64,000 nt of DNA from an uncultured Methanomicrobiales archaeon (lineage in GTDB: Archaea; Halobacteriota; Methanomicrobia; Methanomicrobiales; Methanospirillaceae), in the NCBI GenBank assembly GCA_963697895.1, contig OY969100.1, positions 864,001-928,000 of the forward strand. The letters are read 5' to 3'. The notes below the pieces were generated by a model that was not told the DNA's origin, ran no database searches, and saw nothing but the letters and a program-made list of their open reading frames with translations. Shown here piece by piece: positions 7,408 through 21,342 of this stretch (positions are counted from its first letter, which is position 1; the number at the start of each line of letters is the position of its first letter). Both the position numbers and the translations under genes were made by a program.

Positions 7408-10002
7408 ATGTCATCATCACCGGAACTCCCGAAGACCTATGATTTTGCTGAGGTCGAGCGGCGGTGGCAGCACACATGGCGCGATCGGGATAATTATTTC
7501 GATCAGAATTCTTCCAGACCACGGTTCATCATTGATACCCCTCCACCGTACCCGACAGGGAACTTCCACATCGGCAACGCTCTCAATTGGTGTTATATCG
7601 ATTTTATTGCGCGATACAAACGGATGAACGGATATAATGTGATGTTTCCCCAGGGATGGGACTGTCACGGGCTCCCGACCGAGGTGAAAGTGGAGGAGAT
7701 CCACGGGATCACCAAGAATGATCTCCCGCGGGAACAGTTCCGACAGATGTGCCGGGATCTGACACTCGGGAACATCGAGAAGATGCGGAGGACGCTCCGG
7801 CAACTTGGGTTCTCGGTAGACTGGTCCAACGAATACATCACAATGATGCCGCAATATTACAAAAAGACCCAGCTCTCTTTTCTCCGTATGCTCGCCGACG
7901 GCTATATCTATCAGAGTGAACATCCGGTTAACTTCTGTACCCGGTGCGAGACTGCGATCGCCTTTGCGGAAGTCGCGTATGACGACCGGGAAACGAAACT
8001 GAATTATTTTGACTTTGACGGCCTTGAGATCGCAACCACCCGCCCCGAGCTCCTCGCCGCGTGTGTGGCGGTTGCGGTGCACCCGGAGGACCCGCGATAC
8101 CGGGATCTGAAGGGGAAGACTCTGCAGGTCCCTATCTTCCAACATCGGGTGCCGGTCATAACTGATACAGCCGTAGATCCGGCTTTCGGGTCAGGGGCGG
8201 TGATGATCTGCACGTTTGGGGATAAACAGGATGTCCACTGGTGGAAACAGCATAACCTCGAGCTCCGGAAAGCGGTCGACCGCGGTGGGAGGATGACATC
8301 AATCGCGGGCAGGTATACGGGGCTTCGTTCCGATGAGTGCCGTGCGGCCATCCTGGCAGATATGGAAATGGCAGGGACCCTGAAACGGCAGGAACCCCTC
8401 GGGCAACGGGTAGGCGCCTGCTGGCGATGCAGGACGCCGATCGAGATTATGAGCGAGCGGCAATGGTTTGTCAGGATAAAACCGCAGGAGATTCTGGATG
8501 CTGCGCAGGATATCCACTGGACGCCTGACCATATGCTCCTCCGGATGGAGAATTGGGTGGAGCAGATGGAATGGGACTGGTGCATCTCCCGGCAGCGGAT
8601 CTTTGCCACGCCCATCCCGGTCTGGTTCTGCAGCCGGTGCGGAGGGATGGTACTTCCCGCTGAGGAGGAACTGCCCGTCGATCCGACGGTCGACCGGCCA
8701 AAACGACCTTGTCCGGCATGCGGATCGGACCAGTTCACCGGGGAGGAGGATGTTTTGGATACATGGATGGACTCCTCCATCTCGGTCCTCAATGTGACCG
8801 GGTGGGACGGAAACGGGGTAACTCCTCTCCTCCCGGCCCAGCTCCGGCCGCAGGGTCACGACATAATCCGGACCTGGGCATTTTACACCATCCTCCGCTC
8901 GGTTGCGCTCACCGGGAAGAAACCCTGGGATGAGATCCTGGTCAACGGTATGGTCCTCGGGGAGGACGGGTACAAGATGAGCAAGAGCCGGGGAAACATC
9001 ATTGCTCCGGAGGAGATCGTGGTAAAATATGGTGCAGATGCGTTCCGACAGTGGGGAGCTTCCGGGGCCGCAACCGGTTCGGACATCATGTTCAACTGGA
9101 ACGATGTCATCTCCGCCTCCCGTTTTGAGACAAAGATGTGGAACATTGCACGGTTTGTCCTCCTTCAGCTGGAAAAGCGGGAGTTTTCCCCCGATGCACC
9201 GGTCACCGCCCTTGCCGACCGCTGGCTGAAGGAGCGACTCTCAACGACCATATCCGAGGTGACCACTGCAATGGAGAGCTACCAGTTTGACCGGTCCCTC
9301 AAGGCGATCCGGGAATTTGCATGGGATATATTCGCCGACAACTACATCGAGCTTGTTAAGGGAAGGCTCTATTCCGACGATGAAGGAAGGGATGGCGCAT
9401 GCCGTGTGCTCGCTGATGCATACGATGCGCTCTGCCGGATGCTTGCACCATTCACCCCGTATTTTGCCGAAGAATGTTATTCGTACCTGAACAAGGGGAG
9501 TGTCCATGCACAGTCCTGGCCGCAGCCAACCGGAAGGGATGAAACGGCGATGCGTGAAGGGGATATGCTCACTCAGGTGGTGGCGGAGGTGCGGCGGTAC
9601 AAACATGAACAGGGTCTTGCGCTCAATGCTCCGCTCGGCAGGGTAACGATCTTTGTGCCACACACGATCGATGACAAAGGGGATGCATCGAGAACACTGA
9701 ATGCAGAGGTACGCTGGCGTTCCGATACCGCACGCCTCGATCGGGTCGCGCGGGACATCTCGTTCGATATGTCGGTGATCGGGCCTTCCCTTCGAAACCG
9801 GGCGCAGGGTTTCATGGCCGCGGTCCGCGCCTTACCGCCGGAAGAGCTGGAGAATCCACCGGATACCGTGACCGTAGACGGCGAGAAGATTGGGGTGCCT
9901 CCCGGGGCATTCTACCCGGTCTTTTCCTATATGGAAGAAGGATCGCTGGTCGATCTGATTATGGTCGGTGACGTGATCGTGACGATTCAGAAAGTGTCCT
10001 GA
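7408..10002 (+). CDS. valS: Valine--tRNA ligase
   Basis: [15 protein letters not shown] (HIGH), [30 protein letters not shown]. Confidence 0.97.
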
Positions 10003-10576
10003 TTGTGTCGGCAGTGAACCGGTGAATCTCTGCTTCTTCTTTTAACGCATCCACGATGATGAACCGGCCCGGTTCACGGGCAGCAAGGTTCAGATATGCA
10101 TCCTGTACCCGTTTGAGTATATCCGCCCGCTCAAAGTGCTCGAGCGGGGTGGGTTTGTGCAGCCGCGAGAGCGCCACCTCGATCGGGAGCACCAGAAGGA
10201 ATGTATGATCCGGGGGGATTGTCCATCCGTTATGGAGCGCCCGGAGCCATAAGAGGGGGTCGGGGAGTTGCCCTTCGAGCGTGACGGACTGGTATGCATA
10301 CCGGCTGTCGGAGTACCGGTCGGATATGATCAGGTCGCCACGGGCGATCCCGGGACGGATGATCGAAGCGACATGGGCTGCATGATCTGCGGTGAAAAGG
10401 AGCGCTTCGGTGATCGGGTCCATCTCCTGGGCAATAGCCCTCCGGACCTGGTCCCCGACCCATGTCGCTCCCGGTTCGCGGGTGATGACCGGGTGGAGAT
10501 CTGCAAGAAGCGGCCCGAGAGAACTGACAAGACTTGATTTGCCACTCCCGTCGATTCCCTCTATGGTGATCAGCAC
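9959..10576 (-). CDS. tmk: Thymidylate (dTMP) kinase
   Basis: [35 protein letters not shown]. Confidence 0.95.
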
Positions 10577-11241
10577 ACGAATCCTCTCCGTATGGCATCC
10601 AGCGGAATCGCGCCGGTATGGACACCAGTGGCGATGATCGCCCCGTCAAAGCCGGCATCTGCGAGGGCTTCGATATCGTGCATCGTAGCCACTCCCCCTC
10701 CGTAGAAAAGAGGTTTGCGGTATGCTCTCCTCAACTCCCCGAGCCGTTCTCCTCCAACACCGCTTCCGGTGCCGACGGCACTGATATTAAGGATTATACA
10801 GCCGTTGAATCCCATTTTTTCCACCAATTCAAGGGACCTGACTGGATCTTCCCCGGTGGGGATAATATGGCCGCCTTTCACATCGAGACTCAGGTATCCG
10901 CCGGTATAGGCCGAAAGGTCTGTTCCTCCGGTCTCTGTCCCGATGACATTGATTACCCGGTCGTTGGTAAGGAGATCAGAAGGAGATCTGCTCCCCCGGT
11001 CCACATAGCATTGTTCGACAAGCCGTGAGCATGCGATGATCTCCCGGATATTATCTCCTGTTCCTTCTATCCGGTCGAGGTCGGCGATATAGAGGAACCG
11101 GGGACGGATATGGTTGATAAATGCATCCGGAACCGCTGAAGGTGCCGCCCCCCAGACGAGGGGACGGTAGCCGGCCCGCTCACCACGGCTCCCATGCACA
11201 ACAGTCCCTGATTTCAAATCCATTGCAAGAATCAGCTGCAT
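10570..11241 (-). CDS. HisA/HisF-related TIM-barrel protein (methanogen HisAF-related family)
   Basis: ILAMDLKSGTVVHG..GER..Y, LYIADLDRI, VIGTETG, LSLDVKGG, YGGGV, GAIIATGVH; start moved to MQLILAM. Confidence 0.85.
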   Translation of the reverse strand: MQLILAMDLKSGTVVHGSRGERAGYRPLVWGAAPSAVPDAFINHIRPRFLYIADLDRIEGTGDNIREIIACSRLVEQCYVDRGSRSPSDLLTNDRVINVIGTETGGTDLSAYTGGYLSLDVKGGHIIPTGEDPVRSLELVEKMGFNGCIILNISAVGTGSGVGGERLGELRRAYRKPLFYGGGVATMHDIEALADAGFDGAIIATGVHTGAIPLDAIRRGFVC

Positions 11242-15271: not shown

Positions 15272-15695
15272 TAAAACCGATGAAAACCCCTATGAAGAGT
15301 TGATGAGACAGATCGCCCGGATTGTGGAAGATATCGTGAAAAGTCTCCCAGACCAGAAGAACGCCCGGTTCATCGGGTGTACCATCATATCGGGCACGAA
15401 CTCCGATGCGCCGAAGGTCTTTCATGTCAGAAGTGAGAAGCCGCCGGAGATCTCGTATGAAGTGATCGAAGCGGAAGACCGGATCTTCATCACCGCCCTG
15501 ATACCACCCGAGGTGCCCGCCCTTGCTTATGCCGATATAAGGCCGGATGCGGTCCATATCCGGGCAGGCAACCTGCAGGCCAGCATCACGCTCCAGAAAC
15601 CGATAGATGTCATCCACAGCTTCTACCGGGTGCGGCATGGAGTCATGGATATCGTCCTCTCAAAACCGAGGGTACGTGTCTCGGATGCCCGTTAA
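15264..15695 (+). CDS. Hsp20/alpha-crystallin-like (CS) domain protein
   Basis: Overlaps the regulator stop; YEVIE...IFITALIP...ITL..PID.....VRHGVMDIVL is alpha-crystallin-like. Confidence 0.7.
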   Translation: MPDKTDENPYEELMRQIARIVEDIVKSLPDQKNARFIGCTIISGTNSDAPKVFHVRSEKPPEISYEVIEAEDRIFITALIPPEVPALAYADIRPDAVHIRAGNLQASITLQKPIDVIHSFYRVRHGVMDIVLSKPRVRVSDAR

Positions 15696-15934
15696 ACGGA
15701 AAGAAAAGATACCAGATAATTCCCCCCCTTGAAAATGGAATTAAGTCTTTTCCTCAAATGAGAGGAGTACATCTCTCCAGTTTGGCATGCGATTTAGTCC
15801 ATAAGATGATGTAATAACCCTCCCATTCTTTTTATGTCCAGGGAAACACCAGCATCAAGGAAGTCCCTGACACACTGTGGTTTTGTGGGATCTGAAAAGT
15901 AAGGAAAAAGAATTTAATCTTTATATCGGGCCCG

Positions 15935-16414
15935 TCATGGCCCGGTAACATTGCACCACAGGACGTACGTCGTCTCGTTCCCGGTCACATTCTCGAAAGG
16001 CCGCCGGTAGATTCCGGAGAACTCCTGCAAGCCATTCTTTACGGTGAGGACTTCCCATGTATGAATTCCCCCGGCGCCGATAAGCCCTGATGTGGGTGGT
16101 ATGAAGGTGTCATTTGTAATCTGCAGCCCGTCGGTTACCGTAATGTTCCATGAATAGCCGGTTGTCGGGTTTTCCTGGAGCCATACGGTGAAGGTACTCC
16201 CGAGGGGAACTGCCACGGTCGTCCCGTTGGCGGATTCGTTGTACACATACATGATGGGCGTTGTAGTCGGCATCGGGGTCATGGTTGCAATCGTCGTCGC
16301 CGTAGTTGTCGGAGTCGGAGTTACCGGCGGGGTCACCGGCTGGGTACATCCCGCAACGAGGATGGCAGCAAGACAAAGAATTGCAACAGCGCCAAAAATC
16401 TTTAATTTTTGCAT
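15935..16414 (-). CDS. Chagasin / I42-family protease inhibitor lipoprotein
   Basis: Lipobox VAGC, Thr/Pro linker, LQENPTTGYSW, GAGG, YRRPF. Confidence 0.9.
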   Translation of the reverse strand: MQKLKIFGAVAILCLAAILVAGCTQPVTPPVTPTPTTTATTIATMTPMPTTTPIMYVYNESANGTTVAVPLGSTFTVWLQENPTTGYSWNITVTDGLQITNDTFIPPTSGLIGAGGIHTWEVLTVKNGLQEFSGIYRRPFENVTGNETTYVLWCNVTGP

Positions 16415-16756
16415 TTTCTACCTCAGGGAAATTTGGGCGGGATGAGGAAATATACGTTTCGAGATGCGATCTAAAAGAAATTTTGGAGGATACCTGTCCG
16501 GACACTAACTTGGAACTGCCAAACGCGATATGATGATGAATGGGTGAACGATCAGCTATGTACAGATGGCATCATCGATCCGATCCCGAAGGGATTTTTA
16601 AGCGCCAAAAGTTCTGGGAGAGTAGATTCAGGAAGAAAAGAGCCCGTTAGAATCCCTCCCTTCTGTTCAGGAATGTCCCGATACCCCCCTTCAGACGGAA
16701 TTTTTTTGAACCAGTTATTTTATCGTAACCAGATTTTTTTTCTGAAAAAAACCAGA

Positions 16757-18943
16757 TTACCCTGGTACATGTGTTTCCGGGGCAATCCACTCTGATATCT
16801 GTCGCTTTGCCGGTTTGTATTCACTGAACTGACGGAGGGGAACTGTCAGGTCTCGGGTGAATGCAAAATACCCAATCTGTGTATTTTTACAGAGTCTGCA
16901 TTGCCATATCCATCAGCCCCCGCGGGTCGGGACGGGATTCACCGAGCCAGATATGGAATATGTTACCACCATCGACAATCGGGAAAAAGACGTGTTCTAT
17001 GGCCATCCGCCTCGCAAGCGGGATGTTGGCGGAAGGGGCGACATGCGTGCCATTCGTATAGTAGACCGGGAGGTCCCTCGTAGTCCCGAGCTTCTCAAGC
17101 CCACACCTGAGATCTCCTTTGATAACCTTCCGCGCCGGATCCCGGAACTCCTTGTTCAGCAGGTCAGAGACCGCAAACCGCTGTCCGGTCGTCTCAGCGG
17201 GTGTCCGGGCAAGGGCAATCGTCATATGGTGACGCTTGGAGAGCTCCCGGGCATAGAACTCCATCTCGGTCATTGCCCGAACAGCGAGCCTGAATGCCTC
17301 CGGGGACTCGTGGAGCTGCATGCCGGTATGTGTCTGGACCATTTCGTTTACCCCGACAATCCCGATCGTGTAGACCAGGCTGTCGAGATCAACCCCTACA
17401 GCACCTCGTTCTCCGGTTATCGGATCTTTCGGGCGCTGCATAGCAAATGGCATCCGACCATGCGCCCGGATCAGATCCATCCAGCGGCGCTTGATCCGGA
17501 AGACTTCCACGCAGACATCCATGAGCGACTTCGAGCTCGGAAAAGAGACGTTCTGATCATCACCGTTCGCCCGGTATGCGGCTCGGGGGCAGTTAAGGGA
17601 GACCACCTGCCAGGAACCCATGCTGAAGTGCATCCCGTCTTTGAACCGGAGTTTCTCCTCGAATCCTTCATCCTCCTCCGCGACGGCAGAGAACTGGTAG
17701 GCACAACACTGGTAGCAGGAGATCCCTTTCCCCGCTCCCCGATATTCCGGCATCTGGTTGTCATAATACGGGGTTCCGAACTTGGATGCCAGCTCGAATG
17801 TCATGAGATAGAGATCACGGTACGTGGGAAGATCGGGGTGCTCCTGGTTGAACGCTTCATCCTCCTGCATGAAATCCGGCTCGATGCTGATCTCAGGCTT
17901 CGGGAAACTGAACGGCTTTCCCCAGTAGTCTCCCTCGAGCATCACCTCCATCAGCGCCTTGAAGAGGAGCCGCACCTCGCTTTCGAACTCTTTGTAGGTG
18001 CGGAGCGGTGCCGCTTCCCCGTCCCAGATCTTCCCCTTATATATGCAGGGTTTGTCTTTCCAGAGCGCCGGCACCCCGGGGCTGAGCTGTACAGATGAAA
18101 AGACGAGCTGGCCGCCACGGGCGACCATCATCTGGGTCATCTCGTAGACAAACATCTGCATCAGCTGCCGGATCTCATCATATGCCATTCCCTCGAAGAA
18201 CGGGGCGATGAAGGTGAGGAAATTATAATACCCCTGACCGCCGGCAAAATTTGTCTGTGCACTCCCGAGCGCCTTCACCGCGTGGAGAACCGCGACTTCA
18301 GCCCGCTTTGCCGGGCCGGCGACCGATGCCTTGGTGCCGTTTCCATCCGGCATCAGCCCGTAGTAAAAGAAATACCTGAGATCCCAGTCCTGGCAGAAGG
18401 GCCGGGTGCCAAAGTATTCGAGATCGTGGATATGGATATCCCCGGAGAGATGCCGGTCCGCAAGCGGCGGCGGGAGCTGGAGCAGGTACTGTTCCTTGCT
18501 GATCTTGTCTGCCTTTTTTTTATGCGAGGTCTCGGCATTTTCCTGGAGATTTGCATTATCCTTTGCCTCAAAGCCCCTCCCGACGTCGATCAGGTGTGCA
18601 TCATAGACCGGTGTTCCGACCCGGGTGCAGACGTTCCGGTACTGGACCATAGACTGTTCCAGGAGGGTGATATTGACGATCTCCCTTATGAGGGGACCAG
18701 AAAGGGAATGGAGGCCCATACGGAGGATCCGCTGTTCAACCAGCCGCGCGATCTCCTGGGCCGTCGCCTCATCTGCCCCGTCATGCCCATAGAAGATCCC
18801 GACGAGCTGGGTCTCCTCCAAAATCTGGCGTACTATCTGCTGGCGGTCCCATTCAACGATATGACCGTCCGTCGTCCGTACCGGGGGGACTGCGGGATGA
18901 ATAAACCATCAAGCGTTGTCTGTTTTGCCGAGCGGACCACCAT
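16757..18943 (-). CDS. nrdD: Class III (anaerobic) ribonucleoside-triphosphate reductase; frameshifted near 18885 and 16897; no glycyl-radical C-terminus
   Basis: ATP cone (VRTTDGHIVEWDRQQIVRQILEET...LSGPLIREIVN), GDIHIHDL, AQTNFAGGQG, FSFPKP, YQCC, TPAETT, YYTNG; ATG at 18943 overlaps the glutaredoxin TGA; the repaired C-terminus ends ...GYFAFTRDLTVPLRQFSEYKPAKRQISEWIAPETHVPG*. Confidence 0.9.
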
Positions 18944-19215
18944 CAAACACCCTTCATCAGCTGGTTCATCCGATCTTCCCGGACCTGCCCTCCCGAAAAA
19001 AGATCATTCGATATCAGAAATACAGACCGGTTCTGCAGGACCGGGGCTTCCTGTACGAAAACCCCGTTGATCCGGAGTTCGGTGAGGGATTCAGGGGTCG
19101 CCATATCCCGTTCAGAATAGGAAATGCCGTGTTCCGTCAGGAATCTTTTTAACAATTCGCAATTCGGGCAATCCTCAAGCGTGTATACGATCAGCTGCGG
19201 TGTATTATCTGTCAT
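18943..19215 (-). CDS. nrdH: NrdH-like glutaredoxin/thioredoxin
   Basis: IVYT...CPNC..LK.FL...GISY.ERDM...EAPVL; translationally coupled to nrdD; start moved to MTDNTP. Confidence 0.85.
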   Translation of the reverse strand: MTDNTPQLIVYTLEDCPNCELLKRFLTEHGISYSERDMATPESLTELRINGVFVQEAPVLQNRSVFLISNDLFSGGQVREDRMNQLMKGV

Positions 19216-19408
19216 GGTGTATCCCCCCGGATGTATGGTTATCTGTTCGTTCTGCTCCTCAAAAAAAATTTCTTCTTTTGATTCGGTCTGCACAGTGATA
19301 CAGGAATCTATCATTGCAGATCTCATCTGTCCGGTGGATATGATCATTGAGGATATTATAATCTCTGATAGCCTCCTGATCTGAAGAGAGAGAAGGAGAC
19401 GATATTCT

Positions 19409-19948
19409 GTGGTAAGGACATTCATTGCAATCGATCTGGCTCCCGAGGTCCGTGAACGGCTTTCGGAATCACAGGATACCCTGAAACAGTGCAGCGCCCG
19501 GCTTACCCTCGTCGATCCGGAAAACATCCATCTCACGCTCAAATTTCTCGGGGAGGTCTCCCCGGCCCAGATTGAACAAATAACGGGGGTGCTGCGGGAG
19601 ATAGCGGGGACTCCTTTCGATATCTCACTCGATTGCATTGTCGGGAATACCTCGTCGCGTCCCCGTGTCATCTGGTGTACCATTTCAGACGAGGGAGCGT
19701 GCACCTCCCTTGCGGGCCGGATCGAAGAGGCCCTCGCCCCCCTCGGGTTCAGGCGTGAAGATCGTCCCTTTACTCCGCACGTGACGGTGGCACGGGTCAG
19801 GAATTACGATCCCTCACTATCGCGGGCCCTGAAAGAAGTGGGAGCCCGGCGGCACGGTACCTGCAGGATAACCGGATTTTCCCTGAAAAAGAGCACCCTG
19901 ACCCCCCAGGGACCGATATATGAGGATATCGAGAAGGTGACCTGGTGA
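19409..19948 (+). CDS. thpR: RNA 2',3'-cyclic phosphodiesterase (LigT/2H family)
   Basis: RTFIAI, ENIHLTLKFLGE, PRVIW, RPFTPHVTVAR, STLTPQGPIY (two HxT motifs). Confidence 0.93.
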   Translation: MVRTFIAIDLAPEVRERLSESQDTLKQCSARLTLVDPENIHLTLKFLGEVSPAQIEQITGVLREIAGTPFDISLDCIVGNTSSRPRVIWCTISDEGACTSLAGRIEEALAPLGFRREDRPFTPHVTVARVRNYDPSLSRALKEVGARRHGTCRITGFSLKKSTLTPQGPIYEDIEKVTW

Positions 19949-21342
19949 ACCGGTCTCCGCTTGAGCAGCAGGTGCTCGAAAGGATACGACCTTCACCTGC
20001 GGAGAGAAAACACGTCGAGGTGATTGCCGGCCGGATCATCCAGATAATTGAGGGGCGGGGTGTTCCGGCGATGGTCGTCGGTTCCGTCGCGCGGCATACC
20101 TGGGTCTCCGGTGACAGAGATCTGGATATTTTTATGCTGTTTGATCCCGGACTCCCGCGGGAAGAGCTGGAGAGACAGGGGCTCTCACTCGCCCGTGAAG
20201 TCACTACACTATTCGGAGCTGTCTACCGAGAGAAATATGCCGAACACCCTTATATCAACGCATGTATCGAAGAGATCGATGTAGACCTGGTACCTTGTTA
20301 CCTGCTGGAAAATGCCCGGACGATCCAGTCGGCAGTAGATCGCACGCCATTTCATACCCGGTATATCCAGGAGCGAATTGAACCGTATATCGATGATGTG
20401 CTGCTCCTAAAGCAGTTCTCGAAAGCGGGAGGCGTCTACGGATCGGATCAGATGACAGAGGGGTTTTCCGGGTATCTCACTGAACTTCTGATCCTCATGT
20501 ACGGGGGGTTTATCCCGGTTCTTGAAGCCGCCTCACAATGGCGACCCGGCACGATCATCGATCCTGAGAAACACCGCGCAAAGGAGTTCGGTGAACCGCT
20601 CGTGGTGGTGGACCCGGTCGATCCGGAGCGGAACGTATCGGCATCGGTTTCGCTGACACGGATGTACGAATTCGTGGAGCTGGCACGGGGATACCTCTCT
20701 TCACCGTCGCGGTCATTTTTCTTCCCACCGGACCAGGCACCCGGCGACTACGGCGAATTCAGGGCTGAACGAGCCCGGCGGGGCACCCCGCTCTATGCTC
20801 TTCGGTTTGCTACGCCACCCTATATCGAGGATATCGTAGTGCCGCAGCTCAGGAAGAGTACCGAGGCGGTCTGTGATCTCCTGGGACGTCACGGGTTCAG
20901 CGTCAATCGGGCCGACTATTGCATGGGATCTGATGAGTGTATGCTCATCTTCGAGCTTCTGGTCGACCGGCTTCCCACCGTAAAGAGGCATGCAGGGCCT
21001 CCCCTCTGGAACCGGGGCAATGCTGAAAAATTTGCGGCTAAATATCAGGATAACCGGATCCCTTCCCAATATTCAGGTCCATACATCGAAGATGGGTGTT
21101 ACATGGTCGAGATCTCCCGACGATTCATTTGTGCAGGCGATCTCCTTCGTTCCCATGAGGTGCTGGATGTGGGACTCGGGAAACACGTGAAACAGAGTAT
21201 GAGAGAACGATGGGATCTGGACGAGGGCGATGGATGCTGGCATGAGCAGTACCGTACGTTTTTGAGCGAATTCTTCGTGAAATCTTCACCCCTCGTTCGC
21301 ATACGCAGATTGGATCGGATTGATACAGGAGATCCCATCTGA
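19945..21342 (+). CDS. cca: Archaeal CCA-adding enzyme (class I)
   Basis: VGSVARHTW...DRDLDIF, YAEHPY, DLVPCY, SAVDRTPFH, GFSGY, DPVDPERNV. Confidence 0.95.
   Translation: MNRSPLEQQVLERIRPSPAERKHVEVIAGRIIQIIEGRGVPAMVVGSVARHTWVSGDRDLDIFMLFDPGLPREELERQGLSLAREVTTLFGAVYREKYAEHPYINACIEEIDVDLVPCYLLENARTIQSAVDRTPFHTRYIQERIEPYIDDVLLLKQFSKAGGVYGSDQMTEGFSGYLTELLILMYGGFIPVLEAASQWRPGTIIDPEKHRAKEFGEPLVVVDPVDPERNVSASVSLTRMYEFVELARGYLSSPSRSFFFPPDQAPGDYGEFRAERARRGTPLYALRFATPPYIEDIVVPQLRKSTEAVCDLLGRHGFSVNRADYCMGSDECMLIFELLVDRLPTVKRHAGPPLWNRGNAEKFAAKYQDNRIPSQYSGPYIEDGCYMVEISRRFICAGDLLRSHEVLDVGLGKHVKQSMRERWDLDEGDGCWHEQYRTFLSEFFVKSSPLVRIRRLDRIDTGDPI

Follow-up and report, generated by a model that had tools for sequence, protein, structure and literature searches.

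Class III ribonucleotide reductase (RNR) is summarized in a methods paper as 'catalytic subunit and activase' (PMC9176816; here and below, papers given by PMC number are cited for those portions of their text that were available to us). In the catalytic subunit NrdD of Prevotella copri the core comprises residues 123-671 and the glycyl radical domain (GRD) residues 676-739, the latter being a mobile rigid body that is invisible in inhibited states (PMC11226230). For pyruvate formate-lyase (PFL), another enzyme of the glycyl-radical kind, spare parts of the GrcA type are activated by the activase of the parent enzyme and inserted in trans into a barrel that has no working loop; validation extends to two such parts only, both of PFL, and the remaining glycyl-radical enzymes may have spare parts as well (PMC8683613). 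Among class II RNRs, the split enzyme NrdJa/NrdJb has a small Zn-finger module that is needed for turnover (PMC3653736, PMC9669993), and a survey of phage RNRs lists nrdD genes that are split by introns or inteins (PMC3653736). Here we describe an nrdH-nrdD locus in a 64,000-nucleotide stretch of DNA from an uncultured Methanomicrobiales archaeon (GenBank assembly GCA_963697895.1, contig OY969100.1, positions 864,001 to 928,000; we refer to the whole stretch as the window and to its genome as G000). The nrdD gene of this locus encodes a class III RNR catalytic subunit that has no Zn-finger/glycyl-radical domain. Comparisons of sequences make it quite likely that Methanomicrobiales produce a class III RNR from two polypeptides, the second of which would be a small Zn/glycyl-radical protein encoded elsewhere in the genome.

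The nrdD core gene lies at 16757..18943 on the minus strand of the window, where it measures 2187 nt as assembled. Its product matches the Pfam NRDD model (PF13597) with an E-value of 1.7e-123 and covers profile positions 1-491 of 562; against TIGR02487 it scores 443.4 bits (cut-off 326.35) over positions 1-512 of 581, although its C-terminal domain is absent. Over the barrel, then, the family models recognize a class III RNR catalytic subunit, and the coverage of both models indicates that approximately 70 C-terminal positions are absent, namely those with the Zn site and the glycyl loop. That the Zn-finger/glycyl-radical domain is lacking had been claimed in a preliminary description of this DNA, and translation of the minus strand from 16600 to 18960 in three frames bears the claim out: the main frame ends with a TAA at 16887-16889, a second frame runs via the conserved IGYFAFTRDLTV strand to a TAA at 16757-16759, and the stop at 16757 comes right after the last barrel strand. 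Neither a CxxC pair nor an R-x-G-Y loop is found 3' of the nrdD stop in any of the three frames, just as the description had it for a Cys cluster and an R.xGY motif. The RVxGY glycyl loop is thus missing from the core chain, and we found it on a separate 120-residue protein. The C-terminal tail that follows the last barrel strand (16757..16839, minus strand) has approximately 12 conserved residues and is variable thereafter. Five nucleotides 3' of the stop, a T7 run (16745..16751, minus strand; read directly) makes up the T-rich DNA noted previously and resembles an archaeal oligo-T terminator, which makes it a putative terminator.

The early end of the protein recurs across the order. The core was found in 56 of 61 genomes of Methanomicrobiales, with 77-84% identity to the window protein, and 20 full-length cores could be extracted from the loci of 29 relatives. 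All 20 share the end region of the window protein, as the preliminary description had proposed to check: they terminate 21-33 residues past the ...FTRDLTV strand, and contain no CxxC and no RVxGY. Coverage of orthologous cores by the Pfam NRDD model ends at positions 510-514 of 562. The catalytic residues are invariant in these 20 orthologues. The Cys of the TVC position is lost in most of them, the replacement being mostly Ser, Pro or Ala. Because the truncation is conserved order-wide, including in single-contig genomes and in named isolates, it reflects neither misassembly nor a pseudogene; the truncation is a lineage-wide trait of Methanomicrobiales. (Note that many of the orthologous cores lie in open frames of 1160-1743 residues, for example at G002:C1:1764301-1767711 and G004:C1:371553-376373. 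In such long frames the match to the window protein is broken at query positions of approximately 162-166 and 385-415 by one or two large in-frame insertions, which are presumably inteins. Two further observations concern single genomes: G046 has two truncated nrdD cores approximately 15 kb apart, at C1:285076-286971 and 300796-302832, and G003, a genome of the order, has at C1:590703-592373 a second, distant, full-length NrdD of 569 residues (profile positions 1-560) in addition to the split pair.)

A scan of G000 with PF13597 gave a second match, to about profile positions 506-562, in a 128-residue open reading frame (ORF) at C1:1859380-1859766 (C1 coordinates of G000 are genome positions). 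Homologues start at the ninth codon of this ORF, and from the conserved Met the small gene spans C1:1859380-1859742 on the minus strand and encodes 120 residues (14 kDa). An ORF of approximately 80-130 residues with CxxC...CxxC and SRVTGY had been predicted to lie elsewhere in the genome; the small gene fits that prediction and is located approximately 976 kb from the nrdD core. The small protein is free-standing, with its own start and stop, and only the NRDD and Zn-ribbon models match it in a Pfam scan. It has invariant or nearly invariant Cys or His residues at positions 29, 32, 41, 44, 60, 62, 71, 74, 79, 82 and 85. C71, C74, C79, C82 and H85 are strictly invariant, with knuckles of the form CPxC-x4-CPxC that are predicted to supply Zn ligands. 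Downstream lies an SRVTGY loop with Gly95, in which R92, T94, G95 and Y96 are invariant, and then an invariant tail from W103 to R114 (WN.GK..EL.DR); the conserved Met-x-Trp-Ser N-terminus has no counterpart in fused NrdD. A full-length homologue with 63-85% identity is present in 104 of 121 genomes of the order, among them named isolates of Methanospirillum and Methanoculleus. The names that these small ORFs bear in public records are inconsistent, ranging from reductase and oxidoreductase to RPABC4/Spt4, CHY Zn-finger and hypothetical protein.

The surroundings of the small gene are conserved as well. It is flanked by pyrF at 30 of 30 loci, and by cbiZ together with a Cys-rich zinc-finger-like gene at 24 of 30. 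In G000 (L002:602-2591) its stop overlaps the start of cbiZ (ATGA), from which translational coupling is predicted, and a TATA-like TTTAAAT lies approximately 26 nt 5' of its ATG. This pyrF-small gene-cbiZ neighbourhood may link B12 salvage with a B12-independent RNR.

The core and the small protein abut exactly on full-length NrdD. In hhalign comparisons, columns 4-717 of the core profile align to columns 15-729 of a 777-column profile of fused NrdD, and residues 76-120 of the small protein align to columns 730-774 (probability 99.5%, E-value 3.5e-23); nothing in the fused enzyme corresponds to residues 1-75 of the small protein. When both are aligned to the solved P. copri NrdD, the match of the core extends as far as residue 674, and that of the small protein occupies residues 697-738. 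Since these boundaries match the domain limits of the P. copri enzyme, the two pieces meet at a natural break, at a known hinge. Other families of the phylum supply the nearest full-length NrdDs. By BLASTP these share 68% identity with the core across 704 residues, up to a TVC..DFH motif; the fused chains then go on to CxxCG and the glycyl loop. Their Zn ligands would seem to be the CxxC plus the Cys and His of TVC..DFH, and the tail of the Methanomicrobiales core is best read as a degenerate remnant of the first half of that site. The small protein has an extra CPxC four residues before the conserved CPxC, which suggests that the Zn site has moved entirely to the small subunit.

The third component is also at hand. 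The preliminary description had reported that the window contains no nrdG, and indeed the two radical S-adenosylmethionine (radical-SAM) matches in the window reach 34 and 39 bits, where the cut-off is 131. Elsewhere in the genome, where the description had proposed to look, we found an intact 266-residue ORF for NrdG2 with a CxxxCxxC motif (G000 189039-189839; TIGR02495 match at 189054-189578, 135.9 bits, cut-off 131.15), that is, a cognate activase, approximately 692 kb from the nrdD core. Of the 61 genomes in which the core was sought, 56 contain each of the three (core, NrdG2 and small protein), the remaining five (all of genus g20) have none of them, and no genome shows a mixed pattern. 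(As the genomes are related, this pattern represents a few events and not 56 independent ones.) Apart from the core and the small protein, G000 contains no NRDD match, and it has no PFL-like scaffold and no PF01228 loop; thus, with no other glycyl-radical enzyme encoded, the core is the only plausible partner of the small protein.

The 17 of 121 genomes in which a full-length small gene was not detected comprise one with a piece at a contig edge, five g20 genomes with weak matches and 11 with nothing, the last being nine g20 genomes and two incomplete genomes that have the core. The weak g20 matches sit inside ORFs of 1142-1147 residues. We rejected them as NrdD because PF13597 has no match in five of five g20 genomes checked; they probably represent a Zn-finger region, for example that of the DNA polymerase D large subunit, to which there is weak similarity in the PDB. 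The g20 genomes retain class II RNR.

Of all the contextual evidence, what ties the small protein most strongly to a truncated core is, in our judgement, the gene adjacency on the IMG/VR contig L173. The contig carries, in this order, the small gene (8007-8390), a glutaredoxin-like gene (8341-8622), an nrdD without a GRD (8616-10649; 677 residues, profile positions 1-513 of 562), a family B polymerase gene and a gene for an NrdG-like radical-SAM activase, the last lying 4.7 kb beyond the truncated nrdD. Matches to tail-fibre and head-morphogenesis proteins mark L173 as a tailed-virus contig. The search that found it used a six-sequence alignment and yielded 42 IMG/VR loci, of which 24 have the small free-standing ORF, 15 have a fused NrdD and 3 are unclassified. 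A core lies within the fetched flank at L173 only, and the other 23 small-ORF loci have neither an nrdD core nor nrdG there. (Several of the loci L170-L194 had 8 kb of flank on both sides; viral status was checked for L173 only.)

Relatives of the small protein extend well beyond the order. A phmmer search through all of 1.84 billion representative sequences returned 295 proteins at E<=0.001, 102 of them at E<=1e-10. Among the best 150 matches, 135 are no longer than 250 residues, and 123 of these 135 have the loop, with the double knuckle in 87 of the 123; the other 15 are long fused NrdDs, none of which has the double knuckle. (Some of the small matches are plainly fragments of fused genes.) In a sample of 301 genomes from the phylum, NrdD outside the order is fused, in frames of 650-1250 residues, and at least eight genomes of two families also carry a free-standing protein of 118-131 residues. 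In four of five genomes checked, this protein occurs beside a full-length NrdD, which makes such proteins candidate spare parts for class III RNR, by analogy with the PFL parts. Named examples outside the order are two Methanococcoides genomes (L164, L165), and in M. alaskense the free-standing gene has no RNR neighbours. The free-standing proteins at L086-L089 (G327, G360, G184, G368) and at L164 and L165, of 118-130 residues, differ in the N-terminal half, which is of the CPVH.W type. A tree built on 48 shared GRD columns from 66 free-standing and 14 fused sequences (after exclusion of fragments and of small proteins that lack the double knuckle) requires two state changes, and an approximately unbiased (AU) test keeps a topology in which fused and free-standing forms are the two sides of one branch (p 0.494). 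These results would agree with the free-standing form having arisen once, 48 columns being too short to show it. Separately, querying the ESM Atlas with a homologue returned clusters of its own kind and, with a score of 0.87, a cluster of 86-residue proteins labelled PF13597 and PF01228, in which viruses account for half of the members of known taxon; as a lead only, this cluster may be a further kind of small phage glycyl-radical protein.

In the window nrdD the finger loop, CYQCC, is at 17703-17717 (minus strand; read directly), in agreement with the claim that the YQCC thiyl-radical loop is intact; its cysteines C410, C413 and C414 are invariant in the 20 orthologues, and a double-cysteine class of finger loop has been described (PMC9669993). 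For the N-terminal ATP cone, which had likewise been called intact, we can confirm a domain-like match (18639..18881, minus strand), but its PF03477 score of 18.1 bits does not reach the Pfam threshold of 25.8. An intact orthologue (18.6 bits) and a fused relative (22.2 bits) stay below it as well, and allosteric regulation in this clade may differ from that of the NrdDs studied so far. Upstream of the core is the coupled CPNC gene that the description had named as nrdH (18943..19215, minus strand), which encodes a redoxin of the glutaredoxin fold (Pfam Glutaredoxin, E-value 1e-05; matches to the NCBIfam NrdH/YruB models are weak and below their cut-offs). Its TGA overlaps the ATG of nrdD at 18943 (TGATG), and an nrdH homologue lies immediately 5' of the core gene at 30 of 30 loci; co-transcription of the core with nrdH is the best explanation of this arrangement.

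As assembled, the window copy of nrdD is not in one frame. The preliminary description had repaired a single one-base shift at approximately 16897, and such a shift is present in this assembly, at 16895; that account overlooked a further shift in a C6 run and a pair of compensating indels. To evaluate these sites we compared the region 16600-19300 with contigs of four metagenome runs from three studies, which are mostly 95-99% identical to it. The extra base at 16895 (minus strand), which closes the main frame 46 codons early, is missing from the contigs of all four runs; at this site the conserved MAM and LC motifs are separated by exactly one residue in orthologues, and 20 of 20 extracted orthologues are uninterrupted. 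The +2/+1 pair at 17549/17533 (17533..17550, minus strand) is missing from all three runs that cover it. It garbles five to six residues of a conserved helix with an L..EL motif, which is restored once the pair is removed; L466, E469 and L470 are invariant in the 20 orthologues. The C6 homopolymer (18883..18888, with the site extending to 18889; minus strand) is one base short, a base near 18889 being added in four of four runs. This last shift falls between the start codon and the ATP-cone-like domain, where ...PPVRT... lies in a single frame in orthologues. Together the indels amount to +3 net, and the corrected nrdD has 727 codons, as many as its orthologues. A frameshift after ...LRPRGD likewise splits the class II RNR gene of this assembly (nrdJ, PF02867; G000:C1:1422365-1424030, that is, L214:186-1851, minus strand), which is in one frame in five of five relatives. 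Because near-identical contigs lack the indels and nrdJ is frameshifted too, the frameshifts in the window nrdD are probably assembly errors; consistent with scattered errors of this kind, the closed single-contig genome G000 is estimated to be 93.85% complete, compared to 96-99% for 22 relatives of its family.

Several observations weigh against a two-chain enzyme, or at least against a working one in this strain. Four indel events in 2.2 kb are many, three of them lie outside homopolymers, and the neighbouring genes, namely nrdH, the LigT-like gene, pyrF, cbiZ and nrdG, are intact ORFs. The window nrdD could therefore be a real pseudogene, in which case the split would still characterize the lineage, and this strain would have lost class III and rely on its B12-dependent class II enzyme. 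A class II RNR gene is present in G000, and in all genomes checked, so that class III is not essential and some decay is possible; genus g20 illustrates that the class III set can be lost. We nevertheless regard decay in this strain as unlikely, given that a frameshift breaks the class II gene of this assembly too and no cell can do without a functional RNR, that the small gene and nrdG of G000 are intact, that the contigs of four runs give an intact reading, and that the completeness of the genome suits scattered indel errors. Other adverse points bear on the pairing of core and small protein. In the cellular genomes the small gene, nrdH-nrdD and nrdG are at dispersed loci, and in two genomes, G073 (71% complete) and G097 (93% complete), we found the core but no small gene. 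An AlphaFold model of the small protein alone has a mean predicted local distance difference test (pLDDT) score of 65.4, which drops below 50 for the glycyl loop and tail, including residues 99-120, and a predicted template modelling (pTM) score of 0.46; Foldseek found no match to this model in the PDB at E<=0.001. (P. copri NrdD appeared as a fold match with an E-value of 2.7 over 30 columns, and was discarded.)

A different possibility is that the small protein does not belong to the core at all, being either a Zn-ribbon protein whose role is unrelated or the spare part of a different glycyl-radical enzyme, while the core is inactive or draws on another source of radical. The free-standing relatives that occur beside a full-length NrdD in other methanogens, and alone at 23 viral loci, indicate that the family is not always tied to a truncated core, and some databases call the small protein an RPABC4/Spt4 or a CHY Zn-finger protein. 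Such a role in Methanomicrobiales is very improbable in light of the evidence presented above: G000 has no full-length NrdD, PFL-like enzyme or other glycyl loop that a spare part could serve, the small protein is present or absent together with core and NrdG, and its sequence joins that of the core exactly and its gene is close to the core gene on L173. Moreover, the catalytic cysteines are invariant in cores of 75-86% identity, which argues for selection on activity. Split genes that are rejoined in trans are known in some archaea, and the halves might likewise be rejoined here, by RNA trans-splicing or by a split intein, to give a mature enzyme of one chain; the large intein-like in-frame insertions in many orthologous cores could be taken to point that way. 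Of the explanations considered, we find this one the hardest to credit. The core tail, with its 21-33 variable residues, is too short for intein halves, and inspection of the core tail and the small protein revealed no terminal intein-type motifs. The Met-x-Trp-Ser start of the small protein is conserved and foreign to fused NrdD, a TATA-like element precedes its gene, and on L173 the small gene is 5' of the core with nrdH between them.

We therefore favour the two-chain enzyme, on the grounds that the truncation is lineage-wide, that the two pieces are complementary, present or absent with NrdG and clustered on L173, and that their motifs are invariant. This supports the suggestion in the preliminary description that the radical is supplied by a separate protein. 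In such an enzyme the large subunit would contribute the complete catalytic barrel, the ATP-cone-like domain and the double-cysteine finger loop. NrdG, encoded at a third locus, would abstract the C-alpha hydrogen of Gly95 in the small subunit, whose loop would then insert into the barrel of the core beside CYQCC; activation by NrdG followed by docking in trans is what we infer from the motifs. The radical would be exchanged with a finger-loop cysteine, as in one-chain NrdD, and NrdH would supply electrons that re-reduce the active site, a role that is consistent with the double-cysteine class (PMC9669993). The additional 75 N-terminal residues of the small subunit, with their Zn ribbons, would anchor it, taking the place of the covalent link and of the core Cys and His of the fused ancestor, and probably provide Zn ligands as well as binding energy. 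The arrangement would probably be beneficial in making the oxygen-sensitive part replaceable: oxygen-induced cleavage at the glycyl radical would cost a 14-kDa cartridge and not an 82-kDa enzyme, by the same logic that applies to GrcA/YfiD and PFL (PMC8683613).

More tentatively, the small protein of Methanomicrobiales may belong to a widespread family of exchangeable radical cartridges with three uses, namely as an obligatory small subunit in Methanomicrobiales, as a GrcA-like spare part in Methanococcoides-like and other methanogens that retain a full-length NrdD, and, often carried alone on tailed archaeal viruses, as a means of re-arming or taking over the NrdD core of the host in the course of infection. 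Under the same proposal the Methanomicrobiales split would have come about not by simple fission: an ancestor already equipped with a free-standing copy would have lost its fused domain. We consider this combined proposal possible but rather doubtful.

The genes around the locus are of other kinds. The 3' neighbour of nrdD (window 15935-16414, minus strand) encodes a lipoprotein-like peptidase inhibitor of the chagasin family (PF09394, E-value 1.6e-24) with a Thr/Pro-rich linker. Divergent from nrdH is the gene for a LigT/2'-5' RNA ligase-like phosphoesterase (window 19409-19948, plus strand; PF02834), which overlaps the start of a 465-residue ORF for a putative CCA-adding enzyme (window 19945-21342, plus strand). 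Rfam gave no match in 15500-20500.

If the reading given here is true, this would be the first class III RNR with two subunits in which the radical resides on a separate 14-kDa protein, and the first glycyl-radical cartridge outside PFL, a possibility raised in PMC8683613. In the full-text literature, a scope that leaves out subscription journals, RNRdb and supplements, we came across no account of a class III RNR whose glycyl-radical subunit is separate, nor of an autonomous glycyl radical protein of the NrdD type. In particular, the available portions of two treatments of RNR evolution (PMC4390871, PMC9669993) and of a 2026 review of glycyl-radical enzymes (PMC13450708) make no mention of such a subunit, and the same holds for the available portions of PMC3653736, PMC8683613, PMC11226230, PMC12288474, PMC9176816 and PMC4493059. 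The two-chain enzyme would offer a tractable system for studying how an activase gains access to a glycine that is buried in a barrel, how the domain leaves and re-enters the barrel, and how anaerobes repair oxygen-cleaved glycyl-radical enzymes. It would also correct annotation, as the small ORFs are named inconsistently and the truncated cores can be mistaken for pseudogenes, and the viral copies point to auxiliary genes of a new kind in the viruses of methanogens.

The closest described system is the one-chain NrdD/NrdG of phage T4, E. coli, T. maritima and P. copri (PDB 1h78, 4coi, 8p23), which belongs to the same Pfam and TIGR family and shares the barrel, the finger-loop cysteine, the RVTGY loop, the WN.GK tail, a Zn site (in the present case a predicted one) adjacent to the loop and an NrdG2 activase. 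It differs in that the Zn/glycyl-radical domain is here a separate gene product encoded approximately 1 Mb away, in that the small protein is longer by 75 residues at its N-terminus and has a further CPxC knuckle, and in that the core keeps only a degenerate remnant of the first pair of Zn ligands. The characterized NrdD3/NrdDa enzyme of the methanogen Methanosarcina barkeri is reportedly also a single chain. Like the window locus, it couples nrdH to nrdD and has a double-cysteine finger loop (PMC9176816, PMC4493059).

Among enzymes that are divided, class II NrdJa/NrdJb of Pseudomonas aeruginosa and some phages resembles the present case in that the chain is cut near its C-terminus and the smaller piece is a Cys-rich Zn-finger protein. 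The genes for NrdJa and NrdJb lie side by side or overlap, and their small piece serves to deliver electrons, whereas the genes here are dispersed (976 kb apart in G000, and close together only on L173), the enzyme is of class III and the small piece would hold the radical. Class I RNR (R1 and R2) likewise stores its radical on a separate small subunit that docks on the catalytic subunit (PMC9176816), but R2 has an unrelated, ferritin-like fold with a metal/tyrosyl cofactor and works by long-range radical transfer without loop insertion. GrcA/YfiD and Y06I of phage T4, the spare parts of PFL, are also small free-standing proteins with a glycyl-radical loop. They are of the PFL type (PF01228) and have no Zn ribbon, whereas the small protein described here matches NRDD only and G000 has no PF01228 match; furthermore, GrcA backs up an enzyme that has a domain of its own, and the Methanomicrobiales core never has one. 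By family, therefore, the enzyme would be a class III RNR that departs from the one-chain pattern, and its cartridge would follow the logic of GrcA without being a member of the GrcA family.

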